IMG/VR virus record: IMGVR_UViG_3300037466_001335
Location: 16,926-80,925 of that record
Origin: a virus
Lineage: Duplodnaviria; Caudoviricetes
Direction: 5' to 3' (one strand)
Length of the DNA stretch: 64,000 bases
Shown here: one piece after another, positions 3,948 through 44,362 of the stretch
How the letters are laid out: each line of letters starts with the position of its first letter
Position numbering within the stretch: position 1 is the stretch's first letter
Program-made: the position numbers and the translations under genes
The notes under the pieces: model-generated
Told to the model about the DNA's origin: nothing
Seen by the model: only the letters and a program-made list of their open reading frames with translations
Databases searched by the model: none

Positions 3948-4595
3948 ATGGACAAGAAACAAATGGTTCGCTACAACGACGATAGCAACCAGTTCCCCAT
4001 CAGCTTTGAGCCACATCGCTCTGGCACCTACAACATCTACCTGTTCGGCGCTATCGAATGTCCTACACAATTCATCGGTGCTATTGAAGTGATGCGTATG
4101 GCTACTGAGAACGATACGATTGTTATCCACTTGCAGACCTGTGGCGGTTCTATTGACGCTACTGACACGTTCATCCAAGCTATGCGTGAATGCGAAGCAC
4201 CTATCGTTGTACGGGCATCTGGTGGTGTGCACAGCGCTGGCACGCTGATTCTTCTGGAAGCTGACCACTTTACGCTGTCTGAGAATTTTAGCAGCCTTAT
4301 CCACAATGGCTCCACTGGTGCAGCAGGTAAGTTCTCCGACTACAAGAGCGAAACAGCTTTCACTGCAAAGTGGTTTGAACGAGGTCTGCGCACAGCATAC
4401 GAAGGATTTCTTACGGAAGACGAGATTGATGACGTAATTAAGGGTGTGGACATGTGGTTAGATGCTGACGAGTGGATGCGTCGTGCACAAGCTCGTAATG
4501 AGTATGCAAAGCGCAAGATGGAAGAAGCTCAGCAACCTTCTAAGAAGCCTCGCACCAAGCGTATCAAGGCCGCGCAAGAACAACCTGTAGAATGA
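3948..4595 (+). CDS. clpP: ClpP-family peptidase
   Basis: IYLFGAI, IHLQTCGGS, VHSAGT (catalytic Ser), LIHN (His), DMWLDA (Asp). Confidence 0.85.
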   Translation: MDKKQMVRYNDDSNQFPISFEPHRSGTYNIYLFGAIECPTQFIGAIEVMRMATENDTIVIHLQTCGGSIDATDTFIQAMRECEAPIVVRASGGVHSAGTLILLEADHFTLSENFSSLIHNGSTGAAGKFSDYKSETAFTAKWFERGLRTAYEGFLTEDEIDDVIKGVDMWLDADEWMRRAQARNEYAKRKMEEAQQPSKKPRTKRIKAAQEQPVE

Positions 4596-4600
4596 TTTTT

Positions 4601-4630
4601 AGCCTCGCTTTGTGCGGGGCATTTTTATTT
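4601..4630 (+). terminator. intrinsic terminator
   Basis: gcctcgc-tttgt-gcggggc followed by T tract. Confidence 0.75.
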
Positions 4631-4641
4631 GTAGAAAACGC

Positions 4642-4670
4642 TTGCATTCTTACGATAGGTAAGCTACTAT
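4642..4670 (+). promoter_or_regulatory. sigma70 promoter
   Basis: TTGCAT-17-TACTAT. Confidence 0.7.
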
Positions 4671-4699
4671 AAAGCGTCAACACAAATTTAGGAGGGAAC

Positions 4700-4951
4700 A
4701 TGGAAATTAAACTTACGTACTTTAAACAGAGTGGCAAGTACTACACCTCTGGTAAGTACAACACAAACGTACCACCTCACGATGTGGGTACAGATCGTGC
4801 TATTGCAAATATGTATGCCATCGCTGATGAGGTGGAGTCTATGCGTTCTGCCAACAAGCTTCCTGGTTTGAATCACGGGGCGAGCTTTTTCATTCTGGTA
4901 GACTGTGAAGATGGCTTCCCTTGTCTGCTGCGTCCGGTGGGTGAGCAATGA
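4700..4951 (+). CDS. hypothetical protein
   Basis: AGGAGG RBS, 83 aa. Confidence 0.8.
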   Translation: MEIKLTYFKQSGKYYTSGKYNTNVPPHDVGTDRAIANMYAIADEVESMRSANKLPGLNHGASFFILVDCEDGFPCLLRPVGEQ

Positions 4952-5475: not shown

Positions 5476-6462
5476 ATGATTGTATTAAGCTTGTTTGATG
5501 GTATGTCTTGTGGTCGTATTGCTCTTGAACGTGCAGGTATTGAAGTGACTAAATACTTTTCCAGTGAGATTGATAAGCACGCTATCAAAGTTAGCAAAGC
5601 TAATTGGAGTGATGTGATTCATATTGGGGATGTTACTAAGGTGCGTTTTGAGGGTGGTGTGCTGTACACAGAGAATGGTGATTATGCCGTAGGCAACATT
5701 GATTTACTGATTGCAGGTAGTCCCTGTCAAGGTTTTTCAATGGCAGGCAAACAACTCGCTTTTGATGATGAACGAAGCATGTTGTATTTTGAGTTTGAGA
5801 GAATCAAAGATGAGGTCAATCCTTCTTACTTTTTGCTTGAGAACGTCAAAATGAAACAAGAATACAAGGATGTAATCACTGAACGACTAGGGGTGCTTCC
5901 CGTCGCAGTCAACTCAAACCTTGTGTCTGCGCAAAATCGATATCGCATTTATTGGTCAAACTTACCGATTGAGCAGCCTAAAGATAAAGGAATCGTATTA
6001 AAGGATGTTCTAGAGACTCTAGTAGACACCAAGTATCTTATCAAAGGTGGTAGGCTGGAATGGTTGAATAAGTTTGGTGATGTCAAGGAGAAAGATGGGT
6101 ATGTGGCTTTCAATCCAATTAAGGCTAAATGCTTGACGGTTCGGGCCGAACCGTCCTGGAACTGCACCTACATCGTACAATGGCCTCACGGTAGTAACTC
6201 TGGCGGGTTTCGAGCACTTGACGGTAAGACACCAGCACTTACCACGTCTGCTTGGGAGCACAACAATTTACTGCTGAAAGAGGGGACGGTAAGGAAGCTA
6301 ACACCTGTGGAGTGTGAACGCCTACAAACCGTACCAGACAATTACACTGCTCATGTGTCAGATAGCCAACGGTACAAGATGTTGGGAAACGGCTGGACAG
6401 TGGATGTTATCGCGCATATCTTTGAAGGTATTAAACAACAATCTGAAAAATTGGTTGCATAA
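5476..6462 (+). CDS. dcm: DNA cytosine-5 methyltransferase
   Basis: Motif I LSLFDG, motif IV GSPCQGFS, motif VI ENV, motif VIII QNRYR, motifs IX-X RKLTPVECERLQ..LGNGW. Confidence 0.95.
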   Translation: MIVLSLFDGMSCGRIALERAGIEVTKYFSSEIDKHAIKVSKANWSDVIHIGDVTKVRFEGGVLYTENGDYAVGNIDLLIAGSPCQGFSMAGKQLAFDDERSMLYFEFERIKDEVNPSYFLLENVKMKQEYKDVITERLGVLPVAVNSNLVSAQNRYRIYWSNLPIEQPKDKGIVLKDVLETLVDTKYLIKGGRLEWLNKFGDVKEKDGYVAFNPIKAKCLTVRAEPSWNCTYIVQWPHGSNSGGFRALDGKTPALTTSAWEHNNLLLKEGTVRKLTPVECERLQTVPDNYTAHVSDSQRYKMLGNGWTVDVIAHIFEGIKQQSEKLVA

Positions 6463-6732
6463 GGAGCTTACAAAATGAAAGATTTTCTGTATTGTGCCGC
6501 TGTTACGATTGTTATGCTGCTTGTTGGTATTGGGATTCTGCCGGATATGGTGGATGTATGAATTTCTATGTCATGTGTTTCATCTGCGGGTATATGATTG
6601 GGCAGACGTTTATTTATTGGTATTGTTAAGGAGGGTGTATGAAGATTTATGTTGTAATTGTAAAAGATGGCTCAGACACTTGGGCTGCTTGTGATTGGGC
6701 ACCGTTTACTATTGCGCTTGTAGGAGGGTGAT

Positions 6733-7002
6733 GTGGCAAGGAAGACAACACAAGAAGAAATTGACGAGGCAAATCGACTTCGTGCTGAAGGATTCACTAT
6801 GGAGGATGTTGCTGAGCGCCTTGGCAGGTCAACACCTTGGGTGTACAAACACACAGACAACACGGGTAAACGAGGTAAGACTGAGCACCTGACTCTGAAG
6901 CAGATTACAGTTGAGGAGAATAAGAAGCTGAAAGATGCTAAGAAGAAGCTTAGAGAAGTTACTTGCATTCCAGTTGTTTATGGAGGATATAACACAGTAT
7001 GA
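6733..7002 (+). CDS. HTH DNA-binding protein
   Basis: LRAEGFTMEDVAERLGRSTPWVYK helix-turn-helix. Confidence 0.75.
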   Translation: MARKTTQEEIDEANRLRAEGFTMEDVAERLGRSTPWVYKHTDNTGKRGKTEHLTLKQITVEENKKLKDAKKKLREVTCIPVVYGGYNTV

Positions 7003-7190
7003 CTAACGACATCATACGTTACGAGGTGAATGAACAAGGGGAGCTTCCTCTTTCTTATGGCAGGTATGTGAGGTTCGAGGATTATGAGGATAGGGTGCAG
7101 TGGCTTCTAGAGAAAGTTACGCGGCTTGAGACAAGATTGAGGGATTGTTACGATGATTACACTCACGAATACGAATTTTGGGATATGTGA
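6999..7190 (+). CDS. hypothetical protein
   Basis: Operon context, overlapping start/stop. Confidence 0.65.
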   Translation: MTNDIIRYEVNEQGELPLSYGRYVRFEDYEDRVQWLLEKVTRLETRLRDCYDDYTHEYEFWDM

Positions 7191-7363
7191 TGGAGATTAT
7201 TAAATATCATCGCAGAGATGGGAATATGGTTGTTGCAGAGGATGGCTTTTGGGTGAAGACTGATGATCATCTTGCCATTGTTGAGAAGCTGAAGGCGGAA
7301 ATTGAAGAAGCTTACGAACGAGGGTTCTTCAATGGCGCTTGTACAGGATATGGGCAGGGCTGA
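7190..7363 (+). CDS. hypothetical protein
   Basis: Start/stop overlap with upstream gene. Confidence 0.6.
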   Translation: MEIIKYHRRDGNMVVAEDGFWVKTDDHLAIVEKLKAEIEEAYERGFFNGACTGYGQG

Positions 7364-7434
7364 GTTGTAGCCGTCGCTCGCAGGCTCGCTAGGGGAAGCT
7401 CTGGTGGGCTTTATTTTGGTCTGGGTGCACAATG

Positions 7435-7463
7435 TTGACAAGATGCAATAACAATGCTATAAT
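7435..7463 (+). promoter_or_regulatory. sigma70 promoter
   Basis: TTGACA-17-TATAAT with extended -10 TG. Confidence 0.9.
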
Positions 7464-7510
7464 TCTCCTACTGTAAACGTCGTCTAAGAATAACGAAAGT
7501 GAGAGATAAT

Positions 7511-7963
7511 ATGGATAAGATTTGTTTTGAGTGTGATGCGCCTGCAACAGAGGAACATCATGTGATTCCAGAGAGTCTAGGCGGTACACGAACAGTGCCG
7601 CTGTGCGGGCCTTGTCACAATCGAGTGCATGACGGAAACTGGAAGCGACGGGATAACCACTCTGAGCTTACAAAGGAAGGTCTGCGGAGAGCCAAGGCTC
7701 GTGGTGTTAAACTTGGAAATCATACTAATTCAGAGTATGCAAGAAATAAAGGCAGGGAGTCACTTATTGCGAAGTCTGATGCTTTTGCTTTGAAAATATA
7801 TGAAATTATTTTACCTCTGAAAAATCAAGGTTGGGTTTTGGACAAGATAGCAGAATACCTCAATTCTGAAAATATTGCAACAGCTAGAGGTGGTAAGTGG
7901 CACAATAAATCTGTTAGTAATGTATGGATGAGGGCAAAGAGGCTACTTGAAGAAAAAGCTTGA
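7511..7963 (+). CDS. HNH endonuclease domain fused to serine-recombinase C-terminal DNA-binding domain
   Basis: CFEC..EEHHVIP..GG..TVPLCGPCHNRVH (HNH with Zn ligands), then ~90 aa 41% identical to the C-terminus of the adjacent resolvase. Confidence 0.85.
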   Translation: MDKICFECDAPATEEHHVIPESLGGTRTVPLCGPCHNRVHDGNWKRRDNHSELTKEGLRRAKARGVKLGNHTNSEYARNKGRESLIAKSDAFALKIYEIILPLKNQGWVLDKIAEYLNSENIATARGGKWHNKSVSNVWMRAKRLLEEKA

Positions 7964-7988
7964 CGAGCCCTTTTTATTTGTATATCAT
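7960..7988 (+). promoter_or_regulatory. sigma70 promoter for resolvase
   Basis: TTGACG-17-TATCAT. Confidence 0.7.
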
Positions 7989-8018
7989 ACACATATCTAA
8001 ACGTCTCTGGAGCAAATC

Positions 8019-8684
8019 GTGACTAAATCTTTCATCGGTGTGTGCCGCGTCTCCACCCGTGAACAGGGCCAGTCTAAGAACGGCCTTGAAAGCCAACGTG
8101 CTGAAATAGAACGCTGGGCGAAGCATCATGGGTACAACCTTGTTACGATCATGGATGAGGTGATTTCTGGCAGCACCCCTCTGAAGGATCGCCCTGTGAT
8201 GTCGGCTGCTCTGCTTCTTGCTAAGAAGATGAAGGCGCAAGTTGTGGTGACGAAGAGTGATCGATGCTCTCGTGACTTCGACATCTCCCGCGAGTTGATG
8301 CAGAAGAAAAAGCAGGTTGTGGCAATTGATCTGGGGGAGGATGCAGACAGCTTTGTTGAAATCATCTTCTCTGGCCTTGCTGAGAAAGAGCGCAAGATGA
8401 TTGGTCAGCGCACTAAGGCAGGCTTGGCTGCTGCTAAGGCTCGTGGTGTTGTGCTGGGTAATCGTACCAATCTTCCTGAAGCCAGAGAAAAAGCGGCTGC
8501 TGCCATCAAAGAGAAGGCTGACAGGTTCGCTGCTCGTGTGCGTCCACCTATCGAACGCATGGTTCATTGTGGGATGACTTATGCGGAGATTGCTCAAGAG
8601 ATGAACGAGCAGCACATTCCTACAGCGCGAGGTGGAGAGTGGAGTGCAACTAGCGTTTGTCGTATCGTTTCTAGATGGAAATAA
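8019..8684 (+). CDS. small serine recombinase (resolvase/invertase family)
   Basis: RVSTREQ with Ser12 nucleophile, DEVISG, RP, SDRCSRD; C-terminal IAQEMN..IPTARGGEW domain. Confidence 0.92.
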   Translation: MTKSFIGVCRVSTREQGQSKNGLESQRAEIERWAKHHGYNLVTIMDEVISGSTPLKDRPVMSAALLLAKKMKAQVVVTKSDRCSRDFDISRELMQKKKQVVAIDLGEDADSFVEIIFSGLAEKERKMIGQRTKAGLAAAKARGVVLGNRTNLPEAREKAAAAIKEKADRFAARVRPPIERMVHCGMTYAEIAQEMNEQHIPTARGGEWSATSVCRIVSRWK

Positions 8685-8713
8685 TTTTAAAAATTTACTT
8701 TAAGTAACAAAGG

Positions 8714-8757
8714 TATCGTGTTGTTTTAAAAGAAATATCTGACAAATATCGTGTTGT
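8714..8757. repeat. direct repeat TATCGTGTTGT x2, 33 bp period
   Basis: 8714-8724 and 8747-8757, both preceded by ACAAA. Confidence 0.8.
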
Positions 8758-8759
8758 GT

Positions 8760-8791
8760 GGGAGGGTGCTTTCGGGCATGCCTCCCTTTTT
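8760..8791 (+). terminator. intrinsic terminator
   Basis: gggagg-gtgc-UUCG loop-gcat-cctccc then T5. Confidence 0.8.
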
Positions 8792-9515
8792 GCATTTTTG
8801 GGATATAAAATTTTCTGTGATGTGGCCCTCTTAAGGACGAAGGGAGGGGGTCAGGTCCAAAAGTATCGCTTAGGCAGGATCACGGTCTAACAGTGCCCAG
8901 GGAGGGCCATGATCGCACCCATCTAGGGTGAAAAATATCAATTCCGCCTCATCGACAAATCTATATGCCCGTTTTGATCTGTGTTTTAGGCACCCTGTAG
9001 ACTACTCCAAGCACCCTCTTTCGCGTCGCACAGACAGGCCTACCAGCGCACGCTTGCCATCCTCTGCCCCTCATACACCTGCACAATCCCCTCTCCATCG
9101 CCGCCTAGGCCCCTTCCTAGCCCTCCTATCCCCATTCTGCGCAGCTTCCCTGTCTCACCATCTCTGACCCCCTCTATCGCGCTGTCCTGCTGCTGTCCTG
9201 TGCCCTTTCGCCTGGATAGGCGCTGCATATGTGCGTACACACTGTCGAAGACAGGCTTCTCGTAGAGATGACACTGCTACGGATAGCACTTTGGCAACAC
9301 ATAACCCGTTGGTTATGAATAATGTCTGTCACGGAATACCTCTCGTTGATGACAAGGGTTTTCGGATTTTGAGTCAGGGACGAGTTTTCGTCAAACACAG
9401 ATCACAGTCTATAATCTAGACCTAATAGCACATCGGATAGAATAGACGCCACTCTGTCCGCAATTAACTGTTATGGCACACTATACAGCAACACAAAAGC
9501 GCTCGCACAAATGGC
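8792..9515. other. non-coding zone between convergent terminators (possible terminus/origin)
   Basis: No RBS-supported ORF; purine/pyrimidine skew flips here; 11 bp inverted repeat 8844-8854/9164-9174. Confidence 0.6.
9336..9354. repeat. 19 bp dispersed direct repeat, copy 1
   Basis: ATACCTCTCGTTGATGACA, 18/19 identical to 27965-27983. Confidence 0.65.
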
Positions 9516-9536
9516 AAAAGCCACCTATACGGTGGC
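9516..9536 (-). terminator. intrinsic terminator ending early block
   Basis: gccacc-gtata-ggtggc then TTTT on minus strand. Confidence 0.75.
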
Positions 9537-9560
9537 CTGTTTAGTGTTGCTTTGCATTCG

Positions 9561-9758
9561 TCAATCGGCTATATAAGCTGCATATTCCTCATCGTATGGG
9601 TACGGTAGATACACAACACCATACACATAAGCACTCTTATTCAGATTGTTGATTGCCCTAATGTACTGCGGGAGTGTTGTCTTAGTCATGCTGTATTCTA
9701 CAGTCTCTGTACCATCACGTAGATTCAAGCACACAATGCGACGATTAATTGATTGCAT
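9561..9758 (-). CDS. hypothetical protein
   Basis: AGAGG RBS; last gene before terminator. Confidence 0.7.
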   Translation of the reverse strand: MQSINRRIVCLNLRDGTETVEYSMTKTTLPQYIRAINNLNKSAYVYGVVYLPYPYDEEYAAYIAD

Positions 9759-16757: not shown

Positions 16758-17167
16758 GTTTGAGTGTATTTATGCACTTTGTTTGGTGCAAGAGCGAAGC
16801 GAATACAAGAGACAAGATAAATGCCTCTGTGTGAGGCAATACATTGCATCTGCTAGATGTACCATGCGAGAGACAGCAAACATATCACACCTACGACACA
16901 CGCAACAGCTAGCATCGTACAAATAATCTTGATCGCATATTTATAGTTATAGGTAGCCTCCGTCATACAGCCTCCAAAATCTTATATCCTACATCTGACG
17001 TTTGAATAGCAAGCCTACAGTTGCGAGTGACATATTGTAAAACTTGCTTCACATGCTCTAAATCATCTGTGAACTCACAACTTGTGTATCGACCTCCAAG
17101 AGATAAATTTACTAACAATGTTTGCTCGTAACTATTTGTGTACAGCAAAGCGTAGAGTTTCTTCACA

Positions 17168-27964: not shown

Positions 27965-27983
27965 ATACCCCTCGTTGATGACA
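27965..27983. repeat. 19 bp dispersed direct repeat, copy 2
   Basis: ATACCCCTCGTTGATGACA. Confidence 0.65.
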
Positions 27984-43822: not shown

Positions 43823-44362
43823 ATGGAGACGCCGGTCACTAAGGCATGCTTTAAGTGCGGAGAGACTAAACCCCTCTCCGACTTTTACAAGCACTCAGAA
43901 ATGGCAGATGGTCACGTCAACAAATGTAAGGAATGTAATAAACTAGACGTTAGAAGTAATCGTAAAAAGCGCGAAGACTATTACAATGCTTATGACAGGT
44001 TGAGAAGTACAAAACCTGAACGTAAAGAGTATCGTAAAAAGAACGAGCAAAAGCCCGAAAGAAAGGCCAAGATACAGGCTTATAAAAGGGTATGGCACTC
44101 TGAATACGATATGAAAAAGAAGGCGGCAACGACCGCAGTTGGGAATGCTTTGCGCGACGGTAAGTTGGAAAAGTGGCCGTGTTGGGTTTGTGGAACTACT
44201 GAAAACATAGAAGGTCATCATGTTCACTATGATATGCCTCTAGACGTGATTTGGCTGTGCACAAAACATCATGCAGAGGTTCACCGTGACTACGATCACG
44301 AACAAGACATTATTCTGCTTGAAACCACAGAAAAAGGCAGTCGTTGGAAACAAGACGACTGA
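43823..44362 (+). CDS. HNH endonuclease
   Basis: CFKC..CKEC zinc ribbon; CWVC..EGHH..DVIWLCTKHHAEVH. Confidence 0.85.
   Translation: METPVTKACFKCGETKPLSDFYKHSEMADGHVNKCKECNKLDVRSNRKKREDYYNAYDRLRSTKPERKEYRKKNEQKPERKAKIQAYKRVWHSEYDMKKKAATTAVGNALRDGKLEKWPCWVCGTTENIEGHHVHYDMPLDVIWLCTKHHAEVHRDYDHEQDIILLETTEKGSRWKQDD

Follow-up and report, generated by a model that had tools for sequence, protein, structure and literature searches.

The window analyzed here is a stretch of 64,000 nucleotides of a virus of the Caudoviricetes (IMG/VR record IMGVR_UViG_3300037466_001335, positions 16,926 to 80,925), and the subject of this report is a pair of genes on its plus strand, the first encoding a 150-residue protein with an HNH nuclease module and the second a small serine recombinase of the resolvase/invertase type. 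The source record is 80.9 kb long and includes genes for a primase/helicase, a DNA polymerase, a ribonucleotide reductase, an RNA ligase and a tape measure protein. An initial annotation had noticed that both proteins carry the same kind of DNA-binding domain and had proposed that a swap of catalytic domains produced a nuclease aimed at the same or a related site as the recombinase, acting with it as a nick/cut-and-resolve pair, as its regulator, or as a site-specific homing device. The follow-up analysis points to the last of these options, in that the HNH protein is probably a free-standing homing-type endonuclease with a targeting module derived from a serine recombinase.

An HNH module joined to a recombinase-type tail

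The two proteins share their C-terminal region. BLASTP aligns residues 45-141 of the HNH protein with residues 123-219 of the resolvase without gaps and with 39 of 97 positions identical (40%, E 2e-16), an alignment slightly longer and better than the 37 identities in 90 positions originally counted by hand. Since the shared stretch starts in the C-terminal half of helix E, the HNH module replaces the catalytic domain together with the N-terminal half of this helix, and the proposed placement of the nuclease at the position of the serine catalytic domain holds. An AlphaFold2 model built on the alignment of homologues has a mean predicted local distance difference test score (pLDDT) of 91, with values of 97-99 over residues 81-140. 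Residues 42-49 are modeled as a linker of low confidence, followed by a helix (50-63) equivalent to the last part of resolvase helix E, by the KARGVKLGN arm and by a long helix spanning 74-105; the helix-turn-helix (110-149) includes the TARGGKW loop. PF07508 matches residues 105-138 with a score just under the curated cut-off. Both the HNH module and the recombinase-type tail were recovered by the hidden Markov model and structure-prediction checks, and the homology of the C-terminal region to serine recombinases (end of helix E, arm and helix-turn-helix) is supported. Structural comparison with VIA-align recovered generic helix-turn-helix domains only; those of a serine integrase (9dxd, Z 5.0) and of Tn3 resolvase (5cy1, Z 4.7) are among them, and these weak matches fit a helix-turn-helix without being diagnostic. 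In the PDB, Foldseek found nothing similar to the full model at E≤0.001.

In the complexes of gamma-delta and Tn3 resolvases, minor-groove contacts close to the crossover point are made by the end of helix E and the arm, and the helix-turn-helix occupies the major groove at the outer end of the half-site, while the N-terminal half of helix E is the dimer interface. Pfam gave no PF00239 match on the HNH protein at E values up to 1. Judged from its sequence, the protein cannot be a recombinase, as it is devoid of the catalytic domain, the nucleophilic serine and the N-terminal half of helix E.

The HNH motif that had been recognized in the N-terminal module (CxxC, HH and CxxCH) is present and conserved across 36 homologues that are 31-81% identical to the window protein: H16, H17, C32, H36 and H40 are invariant, and C5, C8 and C35 are kept in at least 90% of them. 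Residues 14-41 are modeled as a beta-beta-alpha unit (strands 14-17 and 28-31, helix 33-41) with pLDDT 90-94. The catalytic histidine of an HNH or His-Me finger nuclease, at the end of the first strand of a beta-beta-alpha-metal fold, is found in the model, in the invariant H16-H17 and in the profile matches, and the metal-binding histidine of the helix and two CxxC zinc knuckles are found across the 36 homologues. The profile built from these homologues matches the solved HNH domains of IscB (E 4e-9) and McrA (E 3.5e-6), and some homologues hold precomputed matches to PF14279 or PF01844. The diversity of the His-Me finger fold has been described (PMC5714182). In comparison with the closest relative (locus L001), the ratio of nonsynonymous to synonymous substitution is 0.02 in the HNH half and 0.03 in the tail, and both modules are therefore under purifying selection.

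The HNH gene appears to be a self-contained cassette consisting of a terminator-like hairpin, a promoter with all consensus positions matched and the open reading frame (ORF) itself (Table 1). As initially annotated, each of the two genes has a predicted sigma-70-type promoter of its own. The TGA stop codon of the HNH gene (7961-7963) falls within the -35 hexamer of the resolvase promoter, and neither the terminator/promoter scan nor reading of the sequence found a terminator-like site between the two genes. The resolvase promoter and the CTAAACG motif that follows it are kept in most close relatives, either with the fusion (L035, L036, L037, L041) or without it (L038, L042), and the hairpin downstream of the resolvase is kept in L035, L036, L038 and L041. 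The resolvase matches PF00239 over residues 6-144 with 87.9 bits (cut-off 23.3) and PF07508 ("Recombinase") over residues 181-218 with 25.7 bits; R10, S12, D81, R82, E124 and R125 are invariant among 33 homologues, and the gene is kept at 46-95% identity across related phage contigs of 45-93 kb. Megablast of positions 6700-9600 against 50,697 phage records gave no match.

Table 1. Features of the HNH-resolvase locus (window positions).
Feature	Position	Strand	Description
Terminator-like hairpin	7382..7411	+	13 pairs, 6 of them G-C, then a T-rich tail; ends the upstream unit of small ORFs, just 5' of the HNH cassette
HNH gene promoter, predicted, sigma-70-type	7435..7463	+	TTGACA-17-TATAAT with TG extension; 12/12 consensus matches
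HNH protein ORF	7511-7963	+	150 amino acids (aa)
HNH (His-Me finger) nuclease module, predicted	7511..7642	+	residues 1-44; C5xxC8, H16-H17, C32xxC35-H36, H40
Serine-recombinase-type DNA-binding tail	7643..7960	+	residues 45-150 of the HNH protein
Resolvase gene promoter, predicted	7960..7988	+	TTGACG-17-TATCAT; 10/12 consensus matches
Small serine recombinase (resolvase/invertase type)	8019..8684	+	221 aa, GTG start; catalytic domain, helix E, truncated "Recombinase"-type DNA-binding tail
Terminator-like hairpin	8760..8799	+	GGGAGGGTGC...GCATGCCTCCC then a T run; end of the HNH-resolvase unit; read by eye from the sequence, missed by the consensus scan

Size of the fusion family and origin of its tails

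The HNH-tail architecture is not peculiar to the window. A word-indexed search recovered about 40 full-length homologues with 33-82% identity, on contigs as long as 90 kb, and HMMER against 1.84 billion representative proteins gave 2330 matches at E≤1e-3 and 601 at E≤1e-10; among the best 150 of these, most are 130-170 aa long and match over their full length. The proteins fetched with an HNH module and a full tail number 171, and clustering at 50% identity divides the family into at least 170 groups. In a set of one genome per species, covering 185,579 species, a first pattern scan found no fusion and a second pattern set found seven full fusions, all of them on contigs of metagenome-assembled genomes (MAGs). 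A full-text literature search turned up no account of an HNH nuclease that ends in a serine-recombinase tail, and the architecture is not mentioned in the passages of a His-Me finger survey retrieved with recombinase and resolvase terms. This fusion family is large, undescribed in the literature searched and almost entirely metagenomic. The window itself has a second ORF (43823-44362, 179 aa) that weakly matches the HNH half of the family profile and has no recombinase-type tail; its top Pfam match is DUF6510 with 25.2 bits, slightly below the cut-off of 26.4 bits.

At least two HNH subtypes occur in the fusions, and a second, short tail of the HTH_7 type is also used (L229, P0027, P0043). The proteins composed of an HNH module and an HTH_7-type tail are a second, independent kind of HNH-resolvase-tail fusion, which in L229 (4378-5300) is encoded directly behind a classical resolvase. 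Three other proteins, P0123 (902 aa), P0133 (537 aa) and P0184 (683 aa), combine a serine-recombinase catalytic domain with three to six stretches that match the HNH fusion protein, these repeats being at least in part tandem copies of the DNA-binding tail. Some members of the fusion family are named "DNA invertase" or "recombinase family protein" in the source databases, names that these genes should not carry.

The origin of the tails was addressed by identity comparisons and by a FastTree phylogeny of 271 tails over about 95 columns. The tail of the window HNH protein is 40% identical to that of its neighbour, which ranks 41st among 105 resolvases, the closest tail being that of an unrelated resolvase (P0038, 50.5%). 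It falls with its phage relatives into a clade made up of HNH proteins only (n=32, support 92), and the tail of the window resolvase belongs to a separate resolvase clade (n=14) whose sister is another group of five HNH proteins (support 95). Separate clades and low identity indicate that the swap is old, so that a shared site specificity cannot be inferred for this pair; neither a recent, local exchange in the window nor the common target site considered in the original proposal is upheld. The window gene is thus best described, from these comparisons, as an old family member whose tail has since diverged from that of its neighbour.

A different picture emerges for the family as a whole. The tree needs eight switches between HNH-linked and resolvase-linked tails, and in four other lineages, all of them tandems in which the resolvase precedes the HNH gene, the tail of the neighbour ranks first or close to first: 73% identity in L216, 61% in L018/L215, 60% in L192 and 44% in L011/L214, with the neighbour as the top match in the first three. 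The label changes, the neighbour-specific tails and the several HNH and tail types together imply that tails were captured or exchanged many times, typically between neighbours, and a new fusion seems to originate next to a resolvase whose tail it copies. The proposed catalytic-domain swap therefore stands as a repeated event of the family and not as a recent one in the window.

Among the possible sources of such fusions, tandem resolvase duplicates could provide raw material for replacement of a catalytic domain. One case is seen in L038, where a diverged resolvase paralogue (4296-4916, 206 aa, PF00239 43.5 bits) lies immediately 5' of the conserved resolvase, at the position of the fusion in the window. 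Derivation of the window fusion by a recent in situ swap from a paralogue of this type was considered and discarded, as the paralogue's tail has no match to the fusion profile at E<1e-3. In L192 (2341-4609) the gene order is plasmid-like, with a resolvase, a 103-aa excisionase-like helix-turn-helix protein, the HNH fusion and a ParA-like ATPase.

Distribution of the fusion genes and the homing-type reading

The position upstream of the resolvase is occupied differently among related phages. The fusion is found there in the window, L001-L004 and L007. In L042 and L038, with resolvases 83-88% identical, the slot holds a 299-aa HNH endonuclease (phrog_953) and the diverged resolvase paralogue, respectively; L039/L040 (resolvase 62% identical) have a 409-aa endonuclease of the HNH_5/EndoVII type, and L043/L044 (46%) have no nuclease in the slot. 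The fusion is therefore patchily present at one locus where alternative nuclease genes occur, and the sharing of the slot by three unrelated HNH lineages corresponds to the pattern reported for homing endonuclease genes (PMC10448857). The histories of the two genes also differ. In the comparison with L036, the HNH gene shows a nucleotide identity of 0.62-0.70, and the resolvase gene with the first 100 bases beyond it reaches 0.79-0.90, with a switch at about 7960-8000, that is, an exchange boundary at the edge of the gene; at the protein level the HNH protein is 63% and the resolvase 95% identical. Identity to L035 is about 0.85 throughout.

Other genes of this region vary as well. A C5 cytosine DNA methyltransferase gene at 5476-6462 (PF00145, 158.6 bits), absent from the otherwise syntenic L035, L036, L038 and L042, represents an insertion; the HNH cassette lies in the same mosaic accessory region. 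Small helix-turn-helix proteins are encoded slightly upstream of the nuclease slot in the window (6733-7002) and in L042 (3789-4007), with matches to HTH_23/HTH_38 and, in L042, also to the HTH_7 "resolvase" helix-turn-helix.

The genomic neighbourhoods of the family, all from metagenomic viral contigs, were compared after pooling four scans, which yielded 64 fusion genes after clustering at 95%. Neighbours were defined as serine-recombinase catalytic domains at most 5 kb away, detected with a home-made profile that was seeded also with the divergent recombinases detected by Pfam in L013 and L014 and that may miss very divergent recombinases. By this measure a resolvase accompanies 14 of the 64 fusion genes, in 13 cases directly adjacent, against one of 43 HNH-only control loci (Fisher p 0.004, with non-independent lineages), and the link of the fusions with resolvases is real at the family level. 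Yet 50 of the 64 have no such neighbour, and where at least 1.5 kb is visible on each side the counts are 12 with and 27 without among 39. A preponderance of fusions without a neighbouring resolvase, which had been named beforehand as evidence against a pairing of the two proteins, is thus what was found.

Where the resolvase is present, the HNH gene precedes it in the window, L001-L004 and L007, the two are convergent in L005, L006 and L008/L009, and the resolvase comes first in L011, L018, L192 and L216 as well as in L220 (MAG). Fusions without this neighbour adjoin genes for DNA polymerase (L201), nrdA (L024, L203), NinG/Rap (L174) or a DNA methyltransferase (L151). PF00239 finds no match in the complete 40.9-kb phage of L017, and in two further complete phages the nearest match lies about 10 kb from the fusion. 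The family prefers classic homing-endonuclease neighbourhoods, that is, sites beside conserved or essential genes such as those for DNA polymerase, nrdA and NinG/Rap and, in the window, the conserved resolvase. Homing endonuclease genes are known to cluster near essential genes, often with other endonuclease genes adjoining (PMC10448857).

The window gene is read as homing-type and not as a partner of the resolvase because relatives keep the resolvase without it, the two histories differ, the cassette is apparently self-contained and most fusions have no recognizable resolvase nearby. Of the options contained in the initial annotation, the site-specific homing device is the one favoured by slot patchiness, discordant history and family neighbourhoods. 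The tail would dock at a specific site as a resolvase subunit does at a half-site, keeping the single HNH active site near the place normally taken by the recombinase catalytic domain. A monomer with one HNH site on an eight-residue flexible linker would be expected to nick, or to cut in two steps, a few bp from the recognized sequence, and repair from the gene-carrying phage would then copy the cassette and nearby markers into a co-infecting relative.

Several observations weigh against the homing-type reading. Nuclease activity, target site and homing are all features that we infer from the sequences. No clean empty-site allele was found among the relatives, as the slots always differ by several indels. 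The Pfam matches over residues 5-41 remain below the curated cut-offs (HNH_5, 22.3 bits with a cut-off of 27.5; HNH, 18.5 bits with a cut-off of 21.4), which reflects a short, divergent domain and not a missing fold. The asparagine of the H-N-H motif is not alignable in the subgroup of the window protein, which has a loop four residues shorter, and the asparagine of P0034, P0039, P0040, P0053 and P0260 aligns to a gap there. All relatives are metagenomic, and tblastn against the 50,697 cultured-phage records detected resolvase tails and no fusion. In addition, the enrichment of resolvases near the fusions and the tails 60-73% identical to the neighbour in three lineages could mark a functional link with the recombinase or its sites.

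Rival readings, known systems and implications

The link between fusions and resolvases can be accommodated in a broader reading, according to which HNH nucleases recurrently copy the tail of an adjacent serine recombinase and would thereby be aimed at its recombination or operator sites, as homing targets or as weapons against rival mobile elements, a recurrent natural form of retargeting comparable to that of Odn, the window gene being an old, diverged product of this process. This extension is conceivable but on balance rather doubtful.

Less probable, and unlikely for the window, is a retargeted nuclease in the manner of ICP1 Odn, in which the HNH module took the recombinase tail in order to cut the cognate site of that recombinase, be it a res/att-like site in a competing phage, plasmid or satellite dependent on a recombinase of this kind, or a site near resolvase genes that serves for homing. 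In Odn, a T5orf172 nuclease of homing-endonuclease origin is linked to a RepA_N domain resembling the one in the replication initiator of a satellite, and the protein cleaves the satellite origin; genes of this kind reportedly arose on several occasions (PMC10448857). The resolvase enrichment near fusions and the use of at least two recombinase tail types (Recombinase and the short HTH_7) and at least two HNH subtypes are in line with this reading. It fits the young pairs well (L216, L018/L215 and L192), because their tails are 60-73% identical to the neighbour's; the window pair does not fit, its tail being closer to unrelated resolvases. Moreover, most members of the family have no nearby recombinase, and cutting the site of its own recombinase would be self-harm unless that site were absent or protected.

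The candidate sites near the genes do not favour the Odn-type reading either, as the repeats are not conserved in relatives. Two copies of TATCGTGTTGT (8714-8724 and 8747-8757), spaced by 33 bp, lie in the stretch that separates the resolvase stop codon from the terminator-like hairpin; this sequence was rejected as a conserved binding site, since it is not kept in relatives although the flanking non-coding DNA is 0.87-0.90 identical, like the gene. A 19-nt direct repeat, ATACC(T/C)CTCGTTGATGACA, is found in two large non-coding zones (9336-9354 and 27965-27983, 18/19 identical) and was likewise discarded as a conserved recombinase site, its 13-nt core being absent from all fetched related-phage loci. 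Inverted repeats in 7300-9700 are short and unremarkable, and Rfam gave no match on 8600-9700.

A protein that serves the adjacent resolvase is more improbable still: nicks at the recombination site would initiate or bias recombination, or competition for the sites or promoter of the resolvase would tune recombination or resolvase expression. The fusion does adjoin the resolvase directly in all nearest relatives that carry it (L001-L009), in tandem and convergent order; the tail keeps the end of helix E and the arm, which in the established gamma-delta/Tn3 systems contact DNA at the crossover site; and transcription from the HNH promoter could run into the resolvase gene, given that no terminator-like site separates the two and that the HNH stop codon lies in the resolvase -35 element. 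These features are outweighed by the relatives that keep the resolvase and not the fusion (L038, L042), by the 50 fusion genes with no resolvase within 5 kb, by the complete phages with no PF00239 match or only a distant one, by the different histories of the two genes and by the missing dimer-interface half of helix E. The proposals of a nick/cut-and-resolve pair and of a resolvase regulator are weakened by the same data. A complex prediction for the resolvase and the HNH protein, run without controls, gave a score of 0.00, which speaks neither for nor against binding. This reading and the next are less supported. Least of all is the protein likely to have a dead HNH module and to be only a small zinc-finger and helix-turn-helix DNA binder, such as a repressor: its small size, strong helix-turn-helix and own promoter, the sub-cut-off scores and the non-alignable asparagine would suit this, but the general-base H17, the helix histidines H36/H40 and both CxxC pairs are invariant or nearly so at 31-81% identity, the profile matches the active nucleases IscB and McrA, and the asparagine is a structural position that is replaceable in many active His-Me fingers.

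The homing-type reading can be compared with systems already known. Phage homing endonucleases of the free-standing HNH type (such as I-HmuI, the Mob proteins of T4 and the ICP1 HNH proteins) resemble the window gene in combining a small HNH module, a linker and a separate DNA-binding module. They also share with it a solo gene with its own promoter between conserved genes, patchy presence, a slot used by other nucleases and an identity boundary at the gene edge (PMC10448857). They differ in carrying a NUMOD, zinc-finger or AP2-type module, whereas the window protein, for which homing is presumed, has the helix-E end, arm and helix-turn-helix of a serine recombinase. The likeness to Odn and to the coliphage RepA_N-T5orf172 proteins lies in the union of a homing-type nuclease with a DNA-binding domain, through repeated domain swaps; in Odn and its kin this domain stems from a site-specific protein of a mobile element and redirects the cut to the site of that protein (PMC10448857). 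In Odn the nuclease is of the T5orf172 type, the donor is a replication initiator and the source a satellite gene; in the fusions described here the nuclease is HNH, the donor a serine recombinase and the source, where recognizable, a neighbouring gene. A tail closest to one identifiable site-specific protein is found in the young pairs and not in the window.

Two further comparisons concern the parts of the protein. The proteins of Phapecoctavirus (phAPEC8, ESCO13) annotated as "resolvase/DNA invertase" are small serine recombinases with a truncated PF07508 tail that is 44% identical to residues 55-141 of the HNH protein, with a common KARGVxLGN arm and TARGGxW loop, but the HNH protein differs from them in having no catalytic domain, nucleophilic serine or N-terminal half of helix E. 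I-TevI consists of a GIY-YIG domain, a long linker, minor-groove elements and a C-terminal helix-turn-helix. Its layout is like that of the HNH protein, namely a catalytic cartridge, a flexible linker, a minor-groove segment and a helix-turn-helix, and by this analogy the HNH protein would cut at a fixed distance; the resemblance does not extend beyond architecture, since the nuclease folds differ and the DNA-binding modules are not related.

Homing endonucleases shuffle DNA-binding modules, and a serine-recombinase tail as the targeting module of such an enzyme had no description in the literature searched. The recurrent capture of the tail from a neighbouring gene is the point worth follow-up. 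If the young pairs share their site specificity, they would be a second natural case, after Odn, of a nuclease retargeted by means of the DNA-binding domain of another protein, and they would provide matched sets of a recombinase and a nuclease for one DNA site.

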